Of a stretch of DNA of 64,000 nt, positions 8,796 to 19,582 are shown one piece after another; positions within the stretch are counted from its first letter, which is position 1; each line of letters opens with the position of its first letter. Origin of the DNA: Candidatus Krumholzibacteriia bacterium (GTDB lineage Bacteria > Krumholzibacteriota > Krumholzibacteriia > JAJRXK01); assembly GCA_029932915.1 (NCBI GenBank), contig JAOZPE010000002.1:7546-71545 (forward strand). The letters are read 5' to 3'. The position numbers were made by a program, and so were the translations under genes. Below the pieces are notes generated by a model. The model made no database searches, was not told the DNA's origin, and saw nothing but the letters and a program-made list of their open reading frames with translations.

Positions 8796-10997
8796 TCAGG
8801 GCCGCAGCAGGACCGAAGAGCGGACGCGGTGTTCGCCGCCGCCGTCGGCCACGAGCCAGTAGACGCCGGCGGCCACCGTCCGGCCGCGTTCGTCCCGGCC
8901 GTTCCAGCGCAGGACGTGCCGGCCGGCGGTGAAGACCGTCGGCGGATACGAGCGCACCAGCCGTCCGCGCGCGTCGAACCAGCGCAGACGCACTTGCCGT
9001 TCACTGGACAGTTCGAGTGCCATCCACAGTTCCCCGGGCGCTCCGCGCACCGGACTCAGCGAGAAGCGCGGACCCGTCGGAGCGGGCGTTCCCACCACCT
9101 CGCTGGACAGTTCGAAGTAGGAGCAATTGGGCGCCAGAGGGGAGACGTCGCCGTCGTCCTCGCGGGCGATGACGCGCCACCAGTAGCGACTTCCCGCCTG
9201 CAGACCCTCGACCACGAGCGAGGTGTCCGGCCCGGCCTCGTAGCTCCAGGCGTTCGAGAAGGCTTCATCCTGTGCCAGCTCCAGGCGGTACTGCAGCTTG
9301 TCCCCATCGTAGTTGGGAGCGCTGTGCCAGAGGAAGCGCAGGCCGCTCGATCCGATGACCCGACCCGCTTCGGGATAGATGAGCTGGACCGGCCCCGGGG
9401 GATCGTCCACCAGATCCTCCCACACCTGGGCACTGCCCAGGAGGATCGTGCGGGCGGCCAGGCTGTCGGCCGGGTTGTCGTAGTGGCGGAAGTGGACGCT
9501 GTTGAACCAGACTTCCTTCAGGGCGTCGACGTTGGCCCTCGCCCGCTCGGCCACGGGAATGTGGGGCGTTCCCACCACCACCCGGATCGGTGAACTCACC
9601 AGGTGCAGGCTGTCCGGCAGGCTGTACCAGAAGTCGCCATCGGCGACGGCCTCCACCAGCAGCGCATCGTCCACCGGCAGGTCGATCGGCCCTTCCCAGT
9701 TGAAGTCGTTGAGCTGGGAAGGGTCGATGGGCAGCTCGATCCGCCGCCCGCTGGCTCCCAGGAGGGTGACCCTGCGCAAGGGGGTCCAACTGGCCAGGTG
9801 CAGATGCAGGGTCGCCTCGCCCGGTGCAGTCAACAGGATCTCGCCCATCTTCGCCTCGTTCAGGCGATAGTCGAGCAGGATCGGACCGCTGGTGGCATAG
9901 CTGCGGCCACTGGCCACCGCTCTTCTCCACTGACGGTCGAGCAGGGAGTGGGCCGCGGGGGCGGGTCGGTTGATGTGGGCGTAGGTGCGCAGGGATCCGA
10001 CCGGGCGGAGCCACTGCCGGCTGAGGACGGCATCGGTCTCACCCAGGCTGGCCCAGTGTGCGCCCACTTCGAGCCCGTCCAGCAGGGGCTGGGGGTTCCA
10101 GCGCTCCGGATAGAAGTTGCTGCCGCTGCCGGTGGCGACGCCGTGGAGGCAGCCGGCCACGGCCAACGATGGCAATTCGCGGGCTTCGCCGGTCTCCGGC
10201 CAGTGGAAGGCGCCGACGGTGGTGCCGCCGGTGTGGGGGTGCGCCTGGAAGACCAGCGGAGGGCTGGCGTCCAGCAGCACCTTCTGCAGCAGGGGCCAGG
10301 CCGACAGGCCGGGGCCGTTGGCCCAGGGATTCCCGTCGACGGTGACGAGCTCCTTGGCCCCGAGCACCACCACGTGGCCCCACCAGCCGCTGCGGAACTC
10401 CTCGCCCCACAGCACCAGCACATCCTTCTGATCGATCCCATCGACCACACCGCTGGGGGTCTTGGCCCGGTTCTCCAGCAGGTAGAGCAGGTCGAGGGCC
10501 TCGGCGCGCCCGGCCCGCCCGGCCACACCCACGTCGGCCGGATAGTGATCGGGAAGATTCTCCTCGCCCTGATGGCTCAGATGGACGTGCGGATCGGCGC
10601 CGATCCAACCCCATTGGCGTGGCTCGATCCACTTCTCCACCGGGAGGGTCCACGTGCCGCCATCCTCGCCGAGGGAGATGGCGTATTCACGGGGGATGAC
10701 CGTGGGGCCGCCGGCGGTGCGCACGAGATAGTCGCCGGCAGGCAGATCGAGTTCGATCCGGTCTTCGACGTAGATGTAGGGCTCGAGGCGTTCGTCGAGA
10801 TGGGAGCGCAGGAGGGAGTCGGGCTCGGCGAAGAGCGGGCCCTCATCGCCGATGATGGACAGCCTCGTGGCGGCGGCTTCCCGGGTCTGGGCGTCCTGGA
10901 TCTCCAGGACGAGCCTCGCCGCCGCGGCCGGCGTGGTGAACACGGCCGTCAGGACCAGGAATCCAGCAAGACGTAGAGCAAAGATGTTCGATCGCAT
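8796..10997 (-). CDS. secreted PHP/CehA-McbA-like metallohydrolase-domain protein with FN3-like and C-terminal FlgD-like Ig domain
   Basis: Signal peptide MRSNIFALRLAGFLVLTAVFTTPAAAA. His-rich metal-site-like motif WIGADPHVHLSHQGEE. C-terminal module RLRWFDARGRLVRSYPPTVFTAGRHVLRWNGRDERGRTVAAGVYWLVADGGGEHRVRSSVLLRP, typical of the FlgD Ig-like domain. Confidence 0.55.
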   Translation of the reverse strand: MRSNIFALRLAGFLVLTAVFTTPAAAARLVLEIQDAQTREAAATRLSIIGDEGPLFAEPDSLLRSHLDERLEPYIYVEDRIELDLPAGDYLVRTAGGPTVIPREYAISLGEDGGTWTLPVEKWIEPRQWGWIGADPHVHLSHQGEENLPDHYPADVGVAGRAGRAEALDLLYLLENRAKTPSGVVDGIDQKDVLVLWGEEFRSGWWGHVVVLGAKELVTVDGNPWANGPGLSAWPLLQKVLLDASPPLVFQAHPHTGGTTVGAFHWPETGEARELPSLAVAGCLHGVATGSGSNFYPERWNPQPLLDGLEVGAHWASLGETDAVLSRQWLRPVGSLRTYAHINRPAPAAHSLLDRQWRRAVASGRSYATSGPILLDYRLNEAKMGEILLTAPGEATLHLHLASWTPLRRVTLLGASGRRIELPIDPSQLNDFNWEGPIDLPVDDALLVEAVADGDFWYSLPDSLHLVSSPIRVVVGTPHIPVAERARANVDALKEVWFNSVHFRHYDNPADSLAARTILLGSAQVWEDLVDDPPGPVQLIYPEAGRVIGSSGLRFLWHSAPNYDGDKLQYRLELAQDEAFSNAWSYEAGPDTSLVVEGLQAGSRYWWRVIAREDDGDVSPLAPNCSYFELSSEVVGTPAPTGPRFSLSPVRGAPGELWMALELSSERQVRLRWFDARGRLVRSYPPTVFTAGRHVLRWNGRDERGRTVAAGVYWLVADGGGEHRVRSSVLLRP

Positions 10998-11040: not shown

Positions 11041-14000
11041 TCAGGGGGTGGAATCCACCGGGGCGCTCTCCCGGAGAAGGGCGATCACCGCCCGGCGGAG
11101 CGATTCCAGGCTCTTGGCATCCAGGGTCCCGAAGCGGACCCGGTGCGGGTTCGATTCCGAACCGTGCCACCATCGCTGCGGGGGGGTCGAGAAGAAGGGG
11201 CGCAGCAGGTGCCGTATCTGTTCTCCGGACAACTCGTTGCGCTGCTTCCAGATCTCCAGCCACTCGATCGACTGTTGCGCGTCCCGCAGCGCCTTCACCC
11301 TCAGATCGACGGCGACCAGGGTGGAGCCCGCAGGGGAGGTGCCGGCCGGCAGGCGCGGATCCGGCCAGGTGGCCAGCAGGGCGGTGCCCGGCGCATCGGG
11401 CGGATCGTAGTCGACCCACGCATCGGCTGGCGCCAGGCTCTGCCACACCAGGGCTCCCCGGGCCTGGTCCATCCAGGCCCCCAGCACCCAGGCCGCGGTC
11501 TCCGCCGGCGGTGCGTTCTCGTTGGCCGCGGCCGAGTAGACCTCCCAGCGCAGATGGAGGTCCCTCTGGAGAGCACGGCACCGCCGGGCCTGGGCTTCGT
11601 CCAGTTCGCCGCCGGTGTAGACGATGCGGGCCGCTGTTCCCAGGGCCCCGCGCAGCCACTCGGGCCGGGAGATGTCGGCGCGGGTGAGCCATTGCCGCTT
11701 CTTTCCCCGCGGGAGACGGCGGTCGAAGAACTCCAGGTAGAAACGCAGCGCGGCCCAGTCGGGCCAGTAGAGGGGCTCATCGGTGTTCCACCAGGTGGAA
11801 TGCCCGTAGAGGACGCGGTCGCGCATCTTCGAATTCAGGAAGAAATGCAGCTCGGTGCCTCTCCATCCCTTCGTCTCGAAGTGATCGAGGAAGTCCTCTT
11901 CGGCCCGGCCCAGGCGCGCCAGATAGCTCGGGGCCAGGGCCTCTTCCAGGGGAGGGGCCGTCTCGTGGTGCGCCCACATGAGACGGAAGGGATCGCCCTT
12001 CTGCGGCCAGGGTCCCCGGTAGGCGTAGTTGGCCGGGGTCAAGCGGGTGGGCCAGCCTTCGCGCAGGGGAAGGTACAGGACCTCCAGGGGACGCCGGTCC
12101 CTGGCGAAGGCGCTTCCATCGAGCAAGGGTCCAAGCAGCGCGTCGTAGGCCGTCCAGTCCAGGGTGAAGGCGGTCGAGTCGTCATCTGCGCTCTTCGCTT
12201 CTCCTTCGACGACCGATGGCGCGGCCACCCAGGGGGTGAAGACGCAGCGGTTGGCGCGGGCCAGGCGGAAGTGCTGCAGGGCTTCCCGGCGCAGGTGATA
12301 GGCGTTCAACTCGATGCGGAAGGTGGGTGCACGCGGGAGGGTGAATCCGGTCACCTCGACCTGCACCGGCAGGAGATGCCGTCCACCGGGATGCAGTTCG
12401 ACCACCACCTCGCCGCGATAGAGCCCGGGCGGAAGATGCCGGTCCAGGGCGAGTTCGACGAGGAACGCCCGGTTGTCCGGGGAACCGAGCTCAGGCTCCT
12501 CGCCTCGCCAGGGCACCTCGTCTCCGTCCAGGGGCAACAGGTAGGAGGGCTGCCAGGGGCCGTTTCCACGGTGGAAGTACCACACCCGATAGAAGGACCA
12601 GTGGGAACGGCGCAGCGTGTCCCGGGCGGCCGAGCTGAGCTCGTCGCCGACGATGCGCAGGCTCGCCGGAACGCGGTCGGCCAGGTTCCCGTGGCGTCCC
12701 TGGGATTGGACGATCAGCTGGAAGGACACCGTCTCGCCCCGCCCGCCCACGAGGTGGACCATCCGGCCGTCCCAGATTGCGTTGGCGTCCCACGGGTTGA
12801 CCGCCCCGTTCTCTGCGAGGTCGAGTCGGCCGGTGGTCAGCGGATCGAGCTGGGCCAGTGCCGGCAGTGCCCACAGACGGGGCGGTTTGCGATGCTGGGC
12901 CTGGGGGTGGAAGGGGGAAGGAGACGGCAGGGGGGGGAGCGTATCCAGCGCCGCCGACGCGAGGAAGCTCGCTTCGGAGGCCGCCGAGATCTGTCCAGTG
13001 GCGCTGAATGCCTCGATGCCCAGGTGATGCCGCCCGGGAGCGAGTCCTTCCAGGTGGAAGACGGTGGTGTCGCGGCCGGCCGTGGGGGAAGGCACGCGCC
13101 AGGCCGGCAGCGGCTCGCCATCCAGCCGGAGCCGCCAGGCGAAACAGCGTGGGTCGCGCACGATGCGCACCACGGCGGCGCCGCCGGCCAGGGACGCGCG
13201 CTCCGGTGCGGGCTCCACGGTGAACACCGGAGGCTCGGGCGGCTCCGTGTCCGCCGCCTCCTGGAGTTCGAGTTCGAGCCAGGGGTGGTTCGACCAGGCC
13301 TGGCGGCTGTGGAAGTAGTAGTTGCGGTTGGCCGGTGAGCCGCCCTCCATCAGGGCCAGACCGTCACTGCGTTCGCAGAGAATGGCCTGGATCATCGAGG
13401 GTGGGATGTCCACGGCGATCCAGTCGTTCTCCTCGCCCCGGACCTGGACGACGGTGTTCCGGCTGAAGCCTTCACCCATGATCACGTCGCAGAAGGCCGA
13501 GCCCTCCCAGGCCCATGGTCGTCGGCTCGAGGCGTCGGCCCAGCGCCAACAGGCGCCGTCGCGTCCGGAGTAGGCGCGGGTGGCCTCTCCCTCGACCCAC
13601 GTGGAGCTGACGGTGGAGACGCGCAGCCAATGGGGTGCAGGTGGATGTCTCAAGCGCAGATGCAGACGGGCCCGGCGGATCCGGTGTCCACGGGCCGCGT
13701 GGACGTCGAAGCGCAGAGCCGCCATCTCCTCCACCGACTTCAATTTGAAGACGGGACTGCCGCCTGCGCTCGATTCGCTCTCCTGAGGGGTGGCGTGGGA
13801 GATCCACACGTCGGCGACGGCGGGCAGGTGGAGGATCACCGGCGATGGGCGGTCCGGAGCGCTCGCACCGGGGACGCCCTCCCGCGAGACGTCTTCGTCC
13901 GGAGAACCCCTGTCCACGGCGCTTGCGGGCGGGAACGGTCGCTTCGTGGCGTCCGGATCCGGGCCCTTCCCATCGACGACGGCGAGGATGACGCCGGCCA

Positions 14001-14043
14001 CGGCGGCCACGGAGACCAGAGCAAGGAAGGACTTCGTCTTCAT
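11041..14043 (-). CDS. large secreted protein (about 1000 aa), possibly a glycoside-hydrolase-like (DUF4091-like) fold
   Basis: Internal ATG at 14043 gives signal peptide MKTKSFLALVSVAAVAGVILAV. Long Trp/Tyr-rich soluble domain. Function not assignable from sequence alone. Confidence 0.45.
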   Translation of the reverse strand: MKTKSFLALVSVAAVAGVILAVVDGKGPDPDATKRPFPPASAVDRGSPDEDVSREGVPGASAPDRPSPVILHLPAVADVWISHATPQESESSAGGSPVFKLKSVEEMAALRFDVHAARGHRIRRARLHLRLRHPPAPHWLRVSTVSSTWVEGEATRAYSGRDGACWRWADASSRRPWAWEGSAFCDVIMGEGFSRNTVVQVRGEENDWIAVDIPPSMIQAILCERSDGLALMEGGSPANRNYYFHSRQAWSNHPWLELELQEAADTEPPEPPVFTVEPAPERASLAGGAAVVRIVRDPRCFAWRLRLDGEPLPAWRVPSPTAGRDTTVFHLEGLAPGRHHLGIEAFSATGQISAASEASFLASAALDTLPPLPSPSPFHPQAQHRKPPRLWALPALAQLDPLTTGRLDLAENGAVNPWDANAIWDGRMVHLVGGRGETVSFQLIVQSQGRHGNLADRVPASLRIVGDELSSAARDTLRRSHWSFYRVWYFHRGNGPWQPSYLLPLDGDEVPWRGEEPELGSPDNRAFLVELALDRHLPPGLYRGEVVVELHPGGRHLLPVQVEVTGFTLPRAPTFRIELNAYHLRREALQHFRLARANRCVFTPWVAAPSVVEGEAKSADDDSTAFTLDWTAYDALLGPLLDGSAFARDRRPLEVLYLPLREGWPTRLTPANYAYRGPWPQKGDPFRLMWAHHETAPPLEEALAPSYLARLGRAEEDFLDHFETKGWRGTELHFFLNSKMRDRVLYGHSTWWNTDEPLYWPDWAALRFYLEFFDRRLPRGKKRQWLTRADISRPEWLRGALGTAARIVYTGGELDEAQARRCRALQRDLHLRWEVYSAAANENAPPAETAAWVLGAWMDQARGALVWQSLAPADAWVDYDPPDAPGTALLATWPDPRLPAGTSPAGSTLVAVDLRVKALRDAQQSIEWLEIWKQRNELSGEQIRHLLRPFFSTPPQRWWHGSESNPHRVRFGTLDAKSLESLRRAVIALLRESAPVDSTP

Positions 14044-14309
14044 CGATGGAGTCGGGGCCGGGGTCTTCACTGGGAACCCGTGAGGGGACGGCCGGGTGCA
14101 TTGCACCACCTTCGGCCGCCGGGCGCAAGCGGGCGCTCGCGATCCGCACGGTCGGCGGGCGTCGATCCGCAGGAAAGTGGGGAAGCTGCGCCCACGATCT
14201 CCTCTTCCTTGCCTCGGCCCCGGGAAGGCTCCACGATGGGCCTGGGCTCCTTCCACCGGGAGGAGGGCACCGGGTGCCTTCCATCGGAAGGAAGACGCCG
14301 TGATGGACC

Positions 14310-15203
14310 GTGATCCCTTTCGCTGGGAGGTGGCGCTTGAACTGTCGAGTCTTCCGTCTGCGCACGCCGCAACATGAATGGGTGTTGGAGACGGGGGGTC
14401 GTCATCTGCACCTGAGCCGCTACCTGGCCGAACACGATCTCCCTCGCGATCTGTTGGCTCTCTGCGCCATGGGTTTCTTCGAGAACGAGGAGTTGGAGCG
14501 GCGGCTCCGGGAGGACCGGTGGGAAGAGCGTCCTCTTCCGGTGGACGAGGAGATCGACCTGCCCCTGCAGAGGGAGCGGGTGGGCAAGATTCTCGCCCTG
14601 GGCAAGAACTTCTCGGCCCACGCGGCGGAATTCGGCGAGGAGGTTCCCGCCGAGCCGCTGTTCTTCAACAAGCTGCCCGAGCTGCTCGTGCCCACGGCGT
14701 CGACGGTGACCGTTCCGTCCTGGTACGACGGCCGGGTCGATCACGAGGCCGAAGTGGCGGTGGTCATCGGAGCGCAGGGCCGCGATCTCACGCTCGAAGA
14801 GGCGGAGCGGATGGTGGCCGGCTACACGGTGGCCAACGACCTGACCGCGCGCAGCCTGCAACAGGCCGACCGCCAAAAGGGCTTTCCGTGGCTGCGGGGC
14901 AAGAATCTGGACGGCTTCTGTCCGCTGGGGCCGTGCTTCGTACCGCGCGAATGTCTCGACGTCTCCGACCTGCGGGTCCGCGCCACGGTGAACGGGCAGC
15001 TGCGCCAGGATGCCACCACCGCCGACTGGGTGGTGGATGTCCCCCATGCCCTGGCCTATCTCTCCCGGCACCTCACCCTTCGCTCCGGCGACATCGTGCT
15101 CATGGGCACGCCCGAGGGCGTGGGTCCACTGGACGACGGTGACGAGGTGATCTGTGAGGTCGAAGGCATCGGCGCCCTGCGCACCACGATCGCACGTCCC
15201 TGA
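14310..15203 (+). CDS. fumarylacetoacetate hydrolase (FAH) family protein
   Basis: FAH-domain motifs GKNFSAHAAEFGEEVPAEPLFFNK, HEAEVAVVIG, GKNLDGFCPLGPCFVP, GDIVLMGTPEGVG. The start could be slightly downstream. Confidence 0.8.
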   Translation: MIPFAGRWRLNCRVFRLRTPQHEWVLETGGRHLHLSRYLAEHDLPRDLLALCAMGFFENEELERRLREDRWEERPLPVDEEIDLPLQRERVGKILALGKNFSAHAAEFGEEVPAEPLFFNKLPELLVPTASTVTVPSWYDGRVDHEAEVAVVIGAQGRDLTLEEAERMVAGYTVANDLTARSLQQADRQKGFPWLRGKNLDGFCPLGPCFVPRECLDVSDLRVRATVNGQLRQDATTADWVVDVPHALAYLSRHLTLRSGDIVLMGTPEGVGPLDDGDEVICEVEGIGALRTTIARP

Positions 15204-15292
15204 GCCGGACCGGGCACTTCGGAGTAGAGTGACCGGGCGGGATCGGCGAACCCGGAGCAGAGAGGCCGGCTTCCCATTGCGGGACTGCTGCC

Positions 15293-16303
15293 TTACCAGC
15301 CGTAGAGCGCTTCGACCTCGGTGATGCGTTCCCGCACCGCACGCTTGAGCTCGTCGGGGCCGAGGATCTTCACCATCGCTCCGAAGCGCAGTACCCAGCT
15401 CACCGTCTCGGGCATGGACACGGCGGAGAAGTCCAGGCGCACCGAGCCGTCCTTGCGGCGCCGCAGCTTCTGGTCGGGACTCCAGATGCGCTCGGCCACG
15501 TAGTCGGCGGCCCACCCCTTCAGTTCGACGGAGACCTTGAAGACGTTTCCCTGGATGAGGCCGAAGTGCCGGTTCAGGCTCTTCTCGAAGTCATAGTTGC
15601 GCGGGGGCCGGAACGGCGTGTCGGTGAGGGCGGCGCGGCGGAAACGCTGCAGCGCGAGCAGGGGATCGTAGCCCGGATCGCGGAAGGGGCGGCCGGGCAT
15701 CTTGGCGTAACGCGCGTGCACGTAGATGGTCTCGTTCCAGGCGAAGATCTTCAGGGGCTTGATGCGGAAGGTCTTGGCGCGCTGGTCTCCCGGCTTGCGG
15801 TAGCTGACCTCGCACACCTTGTGCCTTTTCATCCCGTCCATGAGTGTGGCAAGGATCTCCTGCTGGGGGGTGTAGTCGATCACTCCCGCGCGGAAGATGC
15901 CGAAACGCTGGGTGTCCAGTTCGGCTTCGTCGATCAGCAGTTGCGAACTCTTCTCGACGGCCCGGCTGAGTTCGGCGAAATGACGCTGCCCCAGCAGGTG
16001 CTCGGTGAAGGCGCGGCACATGAGCAGGGTCTCCAGCTCGTCACGGCTGAGCATGGCCGCCGGGTGGGGACTCAGGGCACGGCGGATGCGGTAGTAGCTG
16101 CGGTTGCCCCGTTTCTCGTGCTCGATCCGGGTCTGATAGCTGTGGGTGATGTCGTCGATCAGGCGCAGGACGGTCTGTTTCGAACAGCCCAGCTCACGGC
16201 TGAGCTGGGTGAGCGAACACCATTCACCGGTGAAGACGAGACGGGCGAACAGCGAGACGAGCTTCTCGCCGTAGCTCAGATCGGGGGAGAGTTTGCTGGG
16301 CAT
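15293..16303 (-). CDS. WYL-domain transcriptional regulator (N-terminal wHTH + WYL + C-terminal extension)
   Basis: ATG at 16303. HTH region LSYGEKLVSLFARLVFTGEWCSLTQLSRELGCSKQTVLRLIDDI. WYL core KVCEVSYRKPGDQRAKTFRIKPLKIFAWNETIYVHARY. The upstream part of the track ORF (to 16615) is not coding-like. Confidence 0.75.
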   Translation of the reverse strand: MPSKLSPDLSYGEKLVSLFARLVFTGEWCSLTQLSRELGCSKQTVLRLIDDITHSYQTRIEHEKRGNRSYYRIRRALSPHPAAMLSRDELETLLMCRAFTEHLLGQRHFAELSRAVEKSSQLLIDEAELDTQRFGIFRAGVIDYTPQQEILATLMDGMKRHKVCEVSYRKPGDQRAKTFRIKPLKIFAWNETIYVHARYAKMPGRPFRDPGYDPLLALQRFRRAALTDTPFRPPRNYDFEKSLNRHFGLIQGNVFKVSVELKGWAADYVAERIWSPDQKLRRRKDGSVRLDFSAVSMPETVSWVLRFGAMVKILGPDELKRAVRERITEVEALYGW

Positions 16304-16768
16304 GACGGATCCGCCTGGAGGATGACGAGGCTCATGAGACGAGGGACGACGGGTGCGCCGGGCTGGTGTGGCCTCACCGTGCCTCCCCCGACTTCGTTCT
16401 CTGATTATGGGCCCAAGGGGTCGGCAGGGGAAAGGGATGAAGAAGGAGGGTGGATCGGAAGCCGGTGAAATGTGTCCTATCGTTCCGTACTCTGGAACGC
16501 CCATGGGGCATGGTAGCACTGCCGGAGCCGAATTGGTCCACTGCTGACTCCGGCCGAAACCTCGGGTCCCTCTCCCGGCGCACGGGAGCCAAGGCCGCCA
16601 GTAGACGCATGACACATCGATGTGGTGGTCTCGCGCCGGGAGGGGCCGGGGTTGGATCGGCAGCGGGGTTCGGGTCTTCCAGGGCCGCCTCGCCGACCCC
16701 CGGCCGCGCGCCTGGCCCCATCTCCCGGATCCTCGGGCGATTTCCCGTGAAGACAGCCGAAGAGGGCC

Positions 16769-18265
16769 TCAGTCGTCCTTGCCGGGGCACTGTTCCCCGA
16801 TCCAGTCACCGATCAGATTCAATGCCTTCGGGGCGATGGTCTCCTCGATCTGCGAGTACTCGCTGGGATGACCCGTCTTGCAGGTCTGGAAGAGATGGTT
16901 GAGTCCCGGAAGCTCCACGGTCCGGTAGTGCGTGTTGCCTCCGGCTGCGAGCGCGCGGGCGATGGCATCGAGGTTCTCCTTGGGCGGGACCTGCAGATCC
17001 TTCTCCCCGTTGATCGCCAGGACCGGACAGCGCAGCTTCTCCAGCGTGGGCCGCGGGTCGTAGCCCAGGAAGTAGCGGAACCACGGGGAGAGCAGGCTCG
17101 AGATCTGCGCGTCGATGTAGGCCTGCGGATCGCCTAGCTGGGCACGCTCGCTCTCGCTCAGCGCATCGATGGATTCCCTCATGATGCCGCGCAGCCTTCG
17201 GGCGGCGGCCGTGCTGTCCGGAGTCGATTCGACCACGTCCAGCAGACGTTTCTCGAGTTCCCGGTTGCGGGCGATCTCCTCGGGCGCGGTGCCGTCGGCG
17301 CGGGCGATGGCCGCGCTCTGCAGGAGCAGGAGCTCGCGACCGGGAAGGCCCGGCCCGGCCATCAGCACGAGGAACGCCACGTCGTGTGAACGCACGGCGG
17401 CCATCGGCGCGATGATCCCGCCCTCGCTGTGGCCGACGAGGCCGATGCACCGTGGGTCGATCTCCTTGCGCTGTTTCAGGTATTCGACTCCGGCGAGGAC
17501 GTCGCCGGCGAAATCCTCACTGGTCGAGGCGGCCGTGTTGCCGGTCGAGCCGCCCACACCGCGGTCGTCCACCCGCAGGACGGCGATGCCCCGTCGGGTC
17601 AGGGCGTCGGCCAGCACCAGGAAGGGCCGGTGGCCGAAGACCGCCTCGTTTCGGTCCTCCGCTCCCGATCCGGAGATGAGGATGACCGCGGGGAACGGGC
17701 CGTCGTCTCGGGGAAGGGTCAGGGTGCCGGCCAGGCTCACGCCCGCATCGGCGTTCTCGTAACGGATTTCCTCCTCGATGTAGGGATAGGGCTTCTCGGG
17801 CTCCTGGGGACGTTGCAGGGAGCTCGCTTCGCTCGACCGCTCCAGCTTCAGCGGAAGCGAGAGCCCGTTCTGCGACCACTTCCCGTCGATGCTCGAGAGA
17901 TGGTCGTCGATGATGCCCTCGTAGCCGCCGCCGACCACCTCGACCTGCAGGCGCAAGGTATCGCCGCTGACGGTCACCGCGCTCACGGGGATTCCCATGG
18001 CCCCCTGGTCGGGGCTGTCCAGGGTGGCGGTGAGGGAACCGCTCTCGTCGAGGGTGAGGTGGAGCACCAGCCGCAACTTCGCTCCGGGGACGGAGAGGAA
18101 ACCCTGCCACGAACCGGCGAGGGAGTCGGCCGGGACGCTTCGTCCCACCGACGCCGCCGGCGGTCCGCTTCGCCCGGAACTCGCCGCCGTCACCGGCAGG
18201 ACCAGGAGAAGGCAGATCGAGAGTGTGATGAGCAGTCCAGTGAGGTTTCCGTTCGTCTTGTCCAT
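16769..18265 (-). CDS. secreted alpha/beta hydrolase (S9 peptidase / dienelactone-hydrolase-like)
   Basis: Start MDKTNGNLTGLLITLSICLLLVLPVTAAS (signal peptide). Nucleophile elbow GHSEGG. Catalytic-domain motifs GSGAEDRNE, LAINGEKDLQVP, GLNHLF. By my hand count the start ATG may be at 18264 rather than 18265. Confidence 0.75.
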   Translation of the reverse strand: MDKTNGNLTGLLITLSICLLLVLPVTAASSGRSGPPAASVGRSVPADSLAGSWQGFLSVPGAKLRLVLHLTLDESGSLTATLDSPDQGAMGIPVSAVTVSGDTLRLQVEVVGGGYEGIIDDHLSSIDGKWSQNGLSLPLKLERSSEASSLQRPQEPEKPYPYIEEEIRYENADAGVSLAGTLTLPRDDGPFPAVILISGSGAEDRNEAVFGHRPFLVLADALTRRGIAVLRVDDRGVGGSTGNTAASTSEDFAGDVLAGVEYLKQRKEIDPRCIGLVGHSEGGIIAPMAAVRSHDVAFLVLMAGPGLPGRELLLLQSAAIARADGTAPEEIARNRELEKRLLDVVESTPDSTAAARRLRGIMRESIDALSESERAQLGDPQAYIDAQISSLLSPWFRYFLGYDPRPTLEKLRCPVLAINGEKDLQVPPKENLDAIARALAAGGNTHYRTVELPGLNHLFQTCKTGHPSEYSQIEETIAPKALNLIGDWIGEQCPGKDD

Positions 18266-18350
18266 GGTGATCTCTCCTGTCGGCTTGCGGCTCGCTGAAC
18301 TCTTCTTCCTTCCCTGCCCCTTCGTCAAGCCGCTTCCTTCTGGTCCCAGG

Positions 18351-18384
18351 ACGCAAGAAAGGCCCGGCGGGTTCCGCCGGGCCT
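18351..18384 (-). terminator. rho-independent terminator downstream of asnA
   Basis: Perfect inverted repeat ggcccggcgg-gttc-cgccgggcc, followed on the minus strand by tttctt. Confidence 0.6.
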
Positions 18385-18457
18385 TCCATTCTCCAGGGAT
18401 CGTCCCGCCTTCGTGCGGGGTCGATCTTCCCCGTCTCGGGGGCTCACCAGGTGGGAT

Positions 18458-19582
18458 CTACTCCAGGACGTAGATGTTCTTCTTCTCGCAGATCTCCTTG
18501 AGCTGCTTGGGCCACACGGTGACGCTCACCTCACCCAGGTGCGCCTTGCGCAGCAGGTACATGTAGGTGCGTGACTGGCCGATGCCGCCGCCGATGGACA
18601 GGGGGATCTCGTCGTTGAGGATGGCCTGGTGGTAGGGAAGTTCGAGGTCCTTCTCCAGGCCGGCCATCTTCATCTGGGTCACCAGGGTGTCCTTGGTCAC
18701 GCGCACGCCCATCGAGGTGAGTTCATGACGGCGCTTGGTCACCGGGTTCCACACCAGGATGTCCCCGTTGATGCCGTGCATGGTCTTGCCGTTCTTGGTG
18801 ATGGTCTCGGTCACCCAGTCGTCGTAGTCGGCGGCGCGCATCTCGTGCGGATAGCCGTCTTCCAGGGGCCAGCCGATGCCGATGATGAAGACCGCGGGAT
18901 ACTTCTTCAGGATCTCCGTCTCCCGCTGCTTGCGCGGCAGATCGGGGAACATGTCGAGGATCTCCTCGGCGTGGAGGAAGGTCAGCTCCTCGGGGAAGTC
19001 GGGGAAGCCGTCGGCGAGTTGCGGATACATCTCCTGGGCCAGCTTGCCCGCCCCGTGCAGGACCTTCCAGATGCGCTGGACCGTGTCCTTGAGGTAGTCG
19101 AGGGTGCGGTCCTTCTCGGTGATGACCCGCTCCCAGTCCCACTGGTCGACGTAGGCGCTGTGGTCGTGATCGAGGAAGTAGTCCTTGCGCACCGCGCGCA
19201 TGTCGGTGAGCACGCCCTCGCCCACCTTGCAGCCGAATTCCTTCAGTGCCATCCTCTTCCACTTGGTCGCGGCCTGCACCACCTGGGCGGTGATGGGCTT
19301 GTCCAGTCCGAGGCCACAGGGAAATTCGACTGGCGTGCGCGACCCGTCGCGGTCGAGCATGTCATTGACGCCGCTTTCCTTGTCGACGATGAGCGGCACC
19401 TGCACCATCTGCAGATTCAGTTCCCTGGCCAGGCCGTCCTCGATGTGCTTCTTCACCGCGTACAGGGCCTTCATGGTCTCCATGGGAGTGAGCAGGCTCT
19501 TGTAGTCGGTGGGGAGGATCTTCTCCACTTCCTCGTAGGTCGAGATTCCGGGACCGGCCAGATCCGCTTTCTTGTCCGCCAT
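18458..19582 (-). CDS. asnA: aspartate--ammonia ligase (asparagine synthetase A) with a ~45-aa N-terminal extension
   Basis: ATG 19582 with AAGGAAG RBS. Motifs HSAYVDQWDWERVI, GDILVWNPV, SIGGGIGQSRTYMYLL match AsnA. Confidence 0.85.
   Translation of the reverse strand: MADKKADLAGPGISTYEEVEKILPTDYKSLLTPMETMKALYAVKKHIEDGLARELNLQMVQVPLIVDKESGVNDMLDRDGSRTPVEFPCGLGLDKPITAQVVQAATKWKRMALKEFGCKVGEGVLTDMRAVRKDYFLDHDHSAYVDQWDWERVITEKDRTLDYLKDTVQRIWKVLHGAGKLAQEMYPQLADGFPDFPEELTFLHAEEILDMFPDLPRKQRETEILKKYPAVFIIGIGWPLEDGYPHEMRAADYDDWVTETITKNGKTMHGINGDILVWNPVTKRRHELTSMGVRVTKDTLVTQMKMAGLEKDLELPYHQAILNDEIPLSIGGGIGQSRTYMYLLRKAHLGEVSVTVWPKQLKEICEKKNIYVLE

Follow-up and report, generated by a model that had tools for sequence, protein, structure and literature searches.

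The question raised by this locus is what a long non-coding gap does in front of the gene for a WYL-domain regulator. The locus belongs to a Candidatus Krumholzibacteriia bacterium and lies in a stretch of 64,000 nucleotides of contig JAOZPE010000002.1 (the window, with a G+C content of about 67%). The gene, located on the minus strand at 15293..16303, encodes a transcription factor of 336 aa with a winged helix-turn-helix (wHTH), a WYL and a WCX domain, and the gap occupies 16304..16768 upstream of it. Our best explanation is that the regulator is a homodimer-type wHTH-WYL-WCX factor of the DriD/PafBC lineage and that the gap is its control region; taken as a whole, this explanation has about an even chance of being correct. 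Tentatively, and judging from the sequence, the local target of the regulator may be a structured RNA read divergently from the gap. The gap had been described in the original prediction as 466 bp long and without a convincing open reading frame (ORF). Its length is 465 bp, and its long and ORF-poor character stood: in three independent assemblies of the window organism the genes are arranged alike and the gap is free of called genes, and it is the longest of 13 intergenic spacers in the surrounding 21 kb.

The predicted wHTH-WYL regulator itself was borne out. The Pfam WYL domain (PF13280) scored 29.7 bits against a cutoff of 21.8, at residues 253-302 of the 440-aa ORF that holds the gene, and the C-terminal WCX domain (PF25583) scored 51.1 bits against a cutoff of 23.9. 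The start codon ATG at 16303 is backed by 754 homologues, which have the same N-terminus (MPxKxxPDxSYGxKL) and are mostly 330-360 aa long. The wHTH of the window regulator was not picked up by Pfam, and the Pfam domain HTH_11 was found in several homologues. An AlphaFold model built with 33 homologues (mean pLDDT 80) shows an N-terminal winged helix, a helical linker, a WYL beta-barrel and the WCX domain; the wHTH consists of H11-25, H31-38, H42-55, E60-65 and E68-73, and residues 11-73 have a pLDDT of 84-95. The wHTH, WYL and WCX features of the class are all present when the model and Pfam are considered together, and the regulator is a further member of the known wHTH-WYL-WCX class.

It is reported that both activator and repressor branches exist among these factors (PMC11662680). 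When the model was compared with the Protein Data Bank (PDB) by Foldseek, the best match was DriD, the wHTH-WYL-WCX activator of Caulobacter crescentus (PDB 8TP8, 9PFQ), over the full length at E 2e-17, followed by PafBC, the actinobacterial WYL activator (PDB 6SJ9, 9FND), at 5e-13. CapW and BrxR, the WYL repressors of CBASS and BREX (PDB 7TB6, 7T8K, 9C5G), have the same three domains and gave weaker matches of 1e-7 and 1e-6, respectively (range for the two, 1e-7 to 1e-5), so that the E-values of DriD and PafBC are better by 5 to 10 orders of magnitude. When PDB sequences were searched with a profile of the regulator family, DriD again came first (1e-9), PafC reached 1e-4, and neither CapW nor BrxR was detected. 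Since DriD and PafBC are at the top by both structure and profile, the regulator is nearer to the activator than to the repressor branch, and a DriD/PafBC-like activator role is moderately supported. Y194, the tyrosine of the WYL motif, does not vary among the 33 homologues and aligns with Y192 of DriD, a residue reported to contact single-stranded DNA (ssDNA) (PMC10853764). In the alignment, Y194 appears to be the sole residue that can be matched with confidence to the ligand contacts of DriD; the conserved basic residues K182, H196, R198 and R220 would be consistent with ligand binding, and it is uncertain whether they correspond to the contact residues of DriD.

The gap was aligned with the corresponding region of the closest relatives, which are the loci L001/L002 (84% aa identity of the regulator) and L007 (85%, on a contig of 534 kb); L002 duplicates L001, and L090 is identical to L007. 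The alignment revealed a conserved island between flanks that could not be aligned, and the strongest element of the island is GTTCCAGAGTACGGAAC. The same inverted repeat was found upstream of WYL genes in more distant homologues. For the box count and a position weight matrix (PWM), 80 homologous non-redundant loci from GTDB genomes were used. In 49 of them, RTTCC-N7-GGAAY is found in the 300 bp before the WYL gene; its density there is 2.3 per kb, compared with 0.037 elsewhere, which is a 62-fold enrichment. The extended consensus is AnC-GTTCC-RTnnnAY-GGAAC-GnT, and the modal position in the family is -42 to -45 from the ATG. The search for inverted repeats across homologous loci that the original prediction had proposed thus yielded a clear palindrome. 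Of the two outcomes that it had set against itself, an unconserved neighbourhood and no motif, the neighbourhood did turn out to be unconserved and the motif very clear.

In the window, the box is GTTCCGTACTCTGGAAC (GTTCC-N7-GGAAC as written on the plus strand) at 16482..16498, inside an extended palindrome at 16478..16502. Its PWM score of 25.6 is the maximum of the window, where the 99.99th percentile is 2.3. Score and conservation together suggest that this predicted box is very probably the cognate site of the regulator. Its distance from the ATG (-195) is unusually large, as is that of its counterparts in L001 (-201) and L007 (-197). It is the sole site of the gap, and no second box was found nearer to the ATG. 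The box and the promoter-like elements described below agree with the earlier proposal that the gap holds an operator or promoter. A second box-like sequence, ATTCCACCTGGTGGAAC, is present on the minus strand at 11785-11801 with a PWM score of 15.8. It is the only other site scoring above 15 in the window, lies inside the coding sequence (CDS) of a 1071-aa protein and is identical in L001, L002 and L007; this look-alike is probably due to coding conservation.

In 65 of the 93 strong boxes of the family, the 17-bp core is separated from a hexamer TAnnnT by exactly 10 nt. This spacing was counted at 68 box sides, of which 32 face the WYL gene and 36 are on the opposite side; no other offset between 4 and 17 had TAnnnT more than 5 times. 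The fixed 10-nt spacing indicates that the box takes the place of a -35 element, the centre of its proximal half-site being near -25. In promoters without a -35, the DriD site is reported to overlap the -35 position and to keep a constant spacing to the -10 (PMC13004042); PafBC is reported to use a -26 motif instead of a -35, a mode called 'sigma adaptation' (PMC11804915). The box family resembles DriD in its -35 position and its fixed distance from TAnnnT, and it resembles PafBC in the centring of the proximal half-site. From this geometry and the homology with these activators, we infer that the regulator family activates box-dependent promoters.

The usual neighbour in the family is a gene for a tandem-AAA+ ATPase (about 710-750 aa, two AAA domains), which is adjacent to the WYL gene in 36 of the 57 loci with enough flank. 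It is mostly divergent from the WYL gene and at times in tandem with it, and where it is separated from the WYL promoter it always has its own copy of the box. Every such ATPase-only box shows the same order: box, exactly 10 nt, TAnnnT, a short untranslated region (UTR) with a Shine-Dalgarno sequence, and ATG. These arrangements suggest that the box usually drives the adjacent tandem-AAA+ gene. The protein is a Cdc48/p97-like classic AAA protein with an uncharacterised N-terminal region of about 270 aa. It reaches no NCBIfam family cut-off, and PADLOC, applied to the ATPase partner from other loci, gave only an IetA-like (IetA/IteA) AAA similarity far below the cutoff. The two-gene unit recurs, for example, at L057:3705-5963 (minus strand), L095:6353-8488 (plus strand), L013, L022 and L025, and also at L037-L039 and L043-L062, and its ATPase gene always has the box in front of it at the activator spacing. 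The family is large and uncultured and ranges over Krumholzibacteriota, Desulfobacterota, Gemmatimonadota, Acidobacteriota and others.

The lineage of the window departs from this pattern. A tblastn search found no tandem-AAA+ homologue in the 64-kb window or in the available sequence of L001 and L007. In a neighbour-joining tree, the window, L001 and L007 form a clade, and neither this clade nor its sister clade has the ATPase nearby. In the window, a -10-like hexamer, CATGGT, lies at 16509..16514 on the plus strand, exactly 10 nt after the box, and reads away from the WYL gene. CATGGT is invariant in the window, L001 and L007, whereas the 10-nt spacer in front of it differs at most positions. 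The hexamers at 10 nt on the WYL side are ATTTCA, ATTTCC and ATTCCA in this clade, and none is a -10. The pattern nAnnnT at +10 is therefore present and invariant only on the plus strand, and CATnnT variants occur at the same 10-nt offset in other loci. On the minus strand, a conserved island, CATAAT(CA), lies about 100 nt before the ATG at 16404..16409; the longer motif CATA.TCA (16402..16409) is invariant in the window, L001 and L007 amid a poorly conserved stretch and may be the -10 of a separate WYL promoter.

The alignment of the three lineages defines a conserved non-coding block at 16470..16656, which comprises the box, the hexamer and several hairpins. Its identity among the window, L001 and L007 is 72-78% at the nucleotide level, compared with 77-80% in the WYL CDS, and the flanks are saturated. 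The block was found only in these three known lineages by nhmmer over 86 loci and by a covariance model over 35 loci, and a metagenome-wide pattern scan gave three chance matches inside unrelated coding sequence. A protein gene missed by the gene callers, either a small protein or a frameshifted pseudogene, is hardly to be expected here. Both strands allow ORFs of 64-150 aa, and one gene caller set ORFs of 31 and 34 aa in the equivalent region of L001. The variable sites of the block are distributed over the codon positions as 7/9/11, compared with 61/44/207 in the WYL CDS, so there is no 3-nt periodicity. In a six-frame comparison, a stop in L001 and a 1-nt indel in L007 interrupt the candidate frames, leaving no conserved ORF, and nothing is called at this place in the three assemblies of the window's own genome. 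The earlier view that the gap has no convincing ORF is confirmed by these data, and its suggestion of a small RNA is strengthened to the extent that a conserved, structured non-coding block makes such an RNA plausible.

General searches of the region gave little. Rfam 15 had no match at E<=1 in a 5-kb scan of 14000..19000, and against the gap alone it gave only sub-threshold, chance-level matches without reaching a gathering score. ARAGORN found no tRNA or tmRNA in the gap, the whole 465-nt gap folds no better than shuffles (z +0.54), and a sigma-70 scan of the gap found no -35/-10 pair. The structure is located within the block. RNAalifold and the covariance model predict on the plus strand a hairpin, H1, at 16521..16554, the loop of which (UGGUCCA) is conserved, and, at 16560..16651, a three-way junction closed by a long GC-rich stem (helices 5-8). 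H1 (helix 4) has 9 pairs, of which 3 are changed on both sides, with 96% of cells paired. Helix 5 has 21 pairs and helix 7 has 9, and in each of them 3 pairs are changed on both sides with 93-96% of cells paired. Over the whole predicted plus-strand structure, 91.8% of cells are paired, and 12 pairs are changed on both sides compared with 5.0 +/- 1.6 in shuffles and 1-3 with slid partners. The 92-nt element at 16560..16651 folds better than dinucleotide shuffles in all three sequences and on both strands (z -2.3 to -4.4). The count of G.U versus A.C cells on the plus strand, 14 versus 3, favours this strand, but it is also the one on which the structure was predicted.

The good folding of both strands also admits another origin of the block, namely the 3' end structure of the mRNA of the alpha/beta hydrolase encoded upstream, acting as a terminator or insulator without a U-tract that shields the WYL gene, with the box as a control site of the WYL promoter. 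Terminators without U-runs are frequent in high-GC genomes, the block offers a GC-rich stem of 17-21 bp at 20-160 nt past the hydrolase stop on the same strand, and the sense strand folds as well as stated above. Loop and junction sequences are nearly as conserved as the stems, which would be needless in a terminator. The block lies at a fixed distance from the WYL gene, whereas it is about 20, 113 or about 160 nt away from the stop of the hydrolase gene; it is kept in L001 despite a frameshifted hydrolase, and a terminator scan was blank at the block. We consider this explanation improbable.

The favoured reading is that of a divergent small RNA. In the window lineage, where the tandem-AAA+ ATPase is not nearby, the box with CATGGT faces away from the WYL gene, and a transcript would start near 16521 on the plus strand if CATGGT is used; this predicted start coincides with the base of H1. 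The transcript would pass through the hairpin-rich non-coding element of about 130 nt at 16521..16651, towards the 3' end of the hydrolase gene. Past the block on the plus strand, the convergent (upstream) hydrolase gene is reached at its 3' end after about 117 nt without conservation, and there is no fitting protein-coding target. The regulator would most likely switch on this divergent small RNA, or antisense RNA, after a ligand binds to the WYL domain. By analogy with DriD, PafBC and CapW, whose ligand in the case of CapW is reported to be ssDNA (PMC11662680), the ligand would probably be ssDNA arising from damage or infection. The WYL gene would be read from the separate promoter near the CATAAT island at 16404..16409. 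It is possible, though we put it below an even chance, that the structured RNA of about 130 nt has replaced the tandem-AAA+ ATPase as the target of a DriD/PafBC-like activator. The driD locus offers a precedent, as DriD with RNA polymerase faces the divergent operon there and not driD (PMC13004042).

Several observations weigh against the divergent RNA. CATGGT matches TAnnnT only at the A of position 2 and the T of position 6, and the first T is missing. The sense strand is nearly equal to the plus strand in its structure, with both sides changed in 11 pairs and 88.6% of cells paired. The block is present in only three independent sequences, and the structure was predicted from the same three, so that the covariation evidence is weak and biased. 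The terminator scan found a sole terminator-like site inside the WYL CDS and none after the conserved block. The activator mode and the ssDNA ligand are drawn by analogy from relatives at about 19% identity. Furthermore, CCATGG is palindromic, and the sense strand therefore offers nACCAT 11 nt upstream of the box, which fits a repressor or roadblock model at the WYL gene's own promoter.

This last point leads to the main rival, which is autorepression. The box would be an operator just downstream of a WYL promoter with nACCAT as its sense-strand -10, where the regulator blocks its own transcription; the block would consist of the promoter and upstream or other protein-binding sites, and the mRNA would have a 5' UTR of about 180 nt. 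Such a reading is favoured by CapW and BrxR, which are reported to repress their own genes by binding to palindromes in the promoters (PMC11662680). It is also favoured by ACCATG, which is conserved 11 nt upstream of the box and reads in the window as TGCTACCAT, an extended -10, by the -35-like TGGACCA conserved in the H1 loop, and by the boxes of the sister clade, which face the WYL gene with leaders of 36-83 nt. However, this -35 and -10 would be 18-19 nt apart, and L001 and L007 have kept neither the TG nor the hexamer's first T. Family-wide, the box stands at the -35 position and not downstream of a -10, and the regulator has its closer matches in DriD and PafBC, which are activators. Autorepression also leaves the compensatory changes seen in three helices unexplained, and we regard it as rather unlikely.

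The neighbouring genes are those of the original prediction. An alpha/beta hydrolase gene (Pfam Abhydrolase_6 and Hydrolase_4) lies upstream at 16769..18328 on the minus strand, with its start set at 18265 by the gene callers; it is on the same strand as the WYL gene, with its stop codon at 16769, and a hydrophobic N-terminus makes it plausible that the enzyme is secreted. Downstream and convergent, at 14310..15203 on the plus strand, is a FAH-family hydrolase gene (Pfam FAA_hydrolase, E 2e-60), which ends at 15203. Besides these two, the neighbours of the WYL gene in the window are AsnA and the 1071-aa protein without domains. These neighbours had led to the idea of a hydrolase-centred catabolic module controlled by the regulator, which was not supported and which we now regard as very unlikely. 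The adjacency of the hydrolase and FAH genes is kept in the window, L001 and L007, and a plus-strand transcript from the box would enter the hydrolase gene at its 3' end in antisense orientation. On the other hand, the two genes flank the WYL gene only in these three close relatives and in none of about 80 other family loci, and the usual partner in the family is the AAA+ ATPase and not a hydrolase. There is no strong box upstream of either the hydrolase or the FAH gene, the only strong one of the window being that in the gap. The sole weak resemblance is CTTCC-N7-GGAAG at 14278..14294, in the space that separates the FAH gene from the gene of the 1071-aa protein; it is below the threshold and has no match in L001, L002 and L007. 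In L001 (1997-3332), the hydrolase gene is split over two frames (residues 70-287 and 291-514), which is either a frameshift pseudogene or an assembly error. The presence of the hydrolase and FAH genes next to the WYL gene is a lineage-specific synteny and no regulon.

A defence system was considered and rejected, as PADLOC yielded only generic WYL models for the regulator. PADLOC gave zero matches for the two neighbours scanned, the hydrolase and the FAH protein, and the siting beside a defence operon seen with CapW and BrxR is absent from the window locus. Further downstream, at 11041-14256 on the minus strand, the window encodes a protein of about 1000 aa without a Pfam domain and with a hydrophobic N-terminus, followed by a 733-aa protein with a FlgD_ig domain at 8796-10997 on the minus strand. 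Both adjoin the WYL-FAH pair in L001 and L007 too.

Compared with known systems, the locus is most similar to DriD. Its box has the same half-site/7-nt-gap/half-site layout as the DriD site, ATACGAC-N7-GTCGTAT (PMC10853764), the motif tyrosine is kept (Y194 and Y192), and the site stands beside the regulator's own gene and would face the divergent direction. Unlike DriD, the regulator has the half-site GTTCC instead of CGAC, at about 19% identity between the two proteins; no link to DNA-damage genes was seen, the usual partner is a tandem-AAA+ ATPase, and the presumed target in the window is non-coding. PafBC is a heterodimer or fusion of two WYL proteins with an asymmetric site, unlike the single 336-aa chain and the symmetric palindrome found here. 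CapW and BrxR share with our regulator a palindrome of about 20 bp near their own gene; they differ from it in being repressors beside defence operons, in their weaker structural similarity and in the activator-type geometry of the box described here.

OxyR-OxyS and GcvA-GcvB are cases in which the gene of a transcription factor stands beside a divergent small-RNA gene with the factor's site in its promoter. The divergent layout is the same here; the protein families are unrelated, and the RNA of the window is only predicted and has no Rfam family. In the literature searched, no nucleic-acid-sensing WYL regulator with a small-RNA output was found described, and the same holds for the family-level box, the fixed activator geometry and the pairing of WYL and tandem-AAA+ genes. 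The box, geometry and pairing follow the DriD/PafBC pattern closely, and the candidate small RNA would be the only unusual part.

WYL regulators are emerging as ssDNA-sensing switches of SOS-independent damage responses and phage-defence operons, and binding sites are known for only a handful of them. The present analysis gives a large uncultured WYL family with a predicted box, a DriD/PafBC-like promoter geometry and a recurrent Cdc48-like tandem-AAA+ target. Should the window variant indeed drive a small RNA, such sensors would be seen to act through RNA as well as through proteins; otherwise the locus would be an ordinary self-contained regulator gene with a long control region.

Other members of the family show further arrangements of the box. 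In the sister clade (L005:5735-5757 and the aligned positions in L008-L011; alignment A7, columns ~175-200), two boxes lie 54-72 nt apart, and about 130-200 nt further upstream there is a conserved GC-rich motif, GCGGCCCGGCCCCCCGGCG, followed by CCCCTCC. The motif loosely resembles one arm of the long stem of the window, and the covariance model found no link between the two. At L015/L095:4170-4422, L018:1419-1672 and L012:4572-4824, a conserved 60-aa protein (MDIQQIK...SIDLTLE) is encoded directly downstream of an extra box with a TAnnnT promoter; the equivalent ORF is not intact in L016, and no homologue of this box-controlled protein was found in the window. Genes for a metallophosphatase, DUF2779 and PIN/VapB lie near it. 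This extra promoter suggests that three or four box-driven promoters form a local regulon in those Krumholzibacteriia loci.

The surroundings of the WYL homologue vary from locus to locus. In L003/L004:1-9000, a homologue of 59% identity lies in a defence- and toxin-rich island (an HATPase_c_3 protein, Fic, a DarT-macrodomain protein and ParE/Phd), with HIT and HNH genes directly downstream of it and a strong box after them at +2682; the context of L003 is a DarT/DarG, Fic, ParE/Phd and HIT-HNH island. The context is CsgG with an OMP-like gene in L005, and DUF2779, metallophosphatase and PIN/VapB in L015. The divergent genes of the ATPase-less loci L064, L065, L014 and L003 have no Pfam domains and gave no information on a target. 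As for the window organism itself, its contig is found in JGI 3300005265 as well as in the ENA assemblies ERZ23491052 and ERZ2433807; both ENA assemblies also contain the 84%-identical contig of L001/L002, which suggests that two related populations of the lineage coexist.

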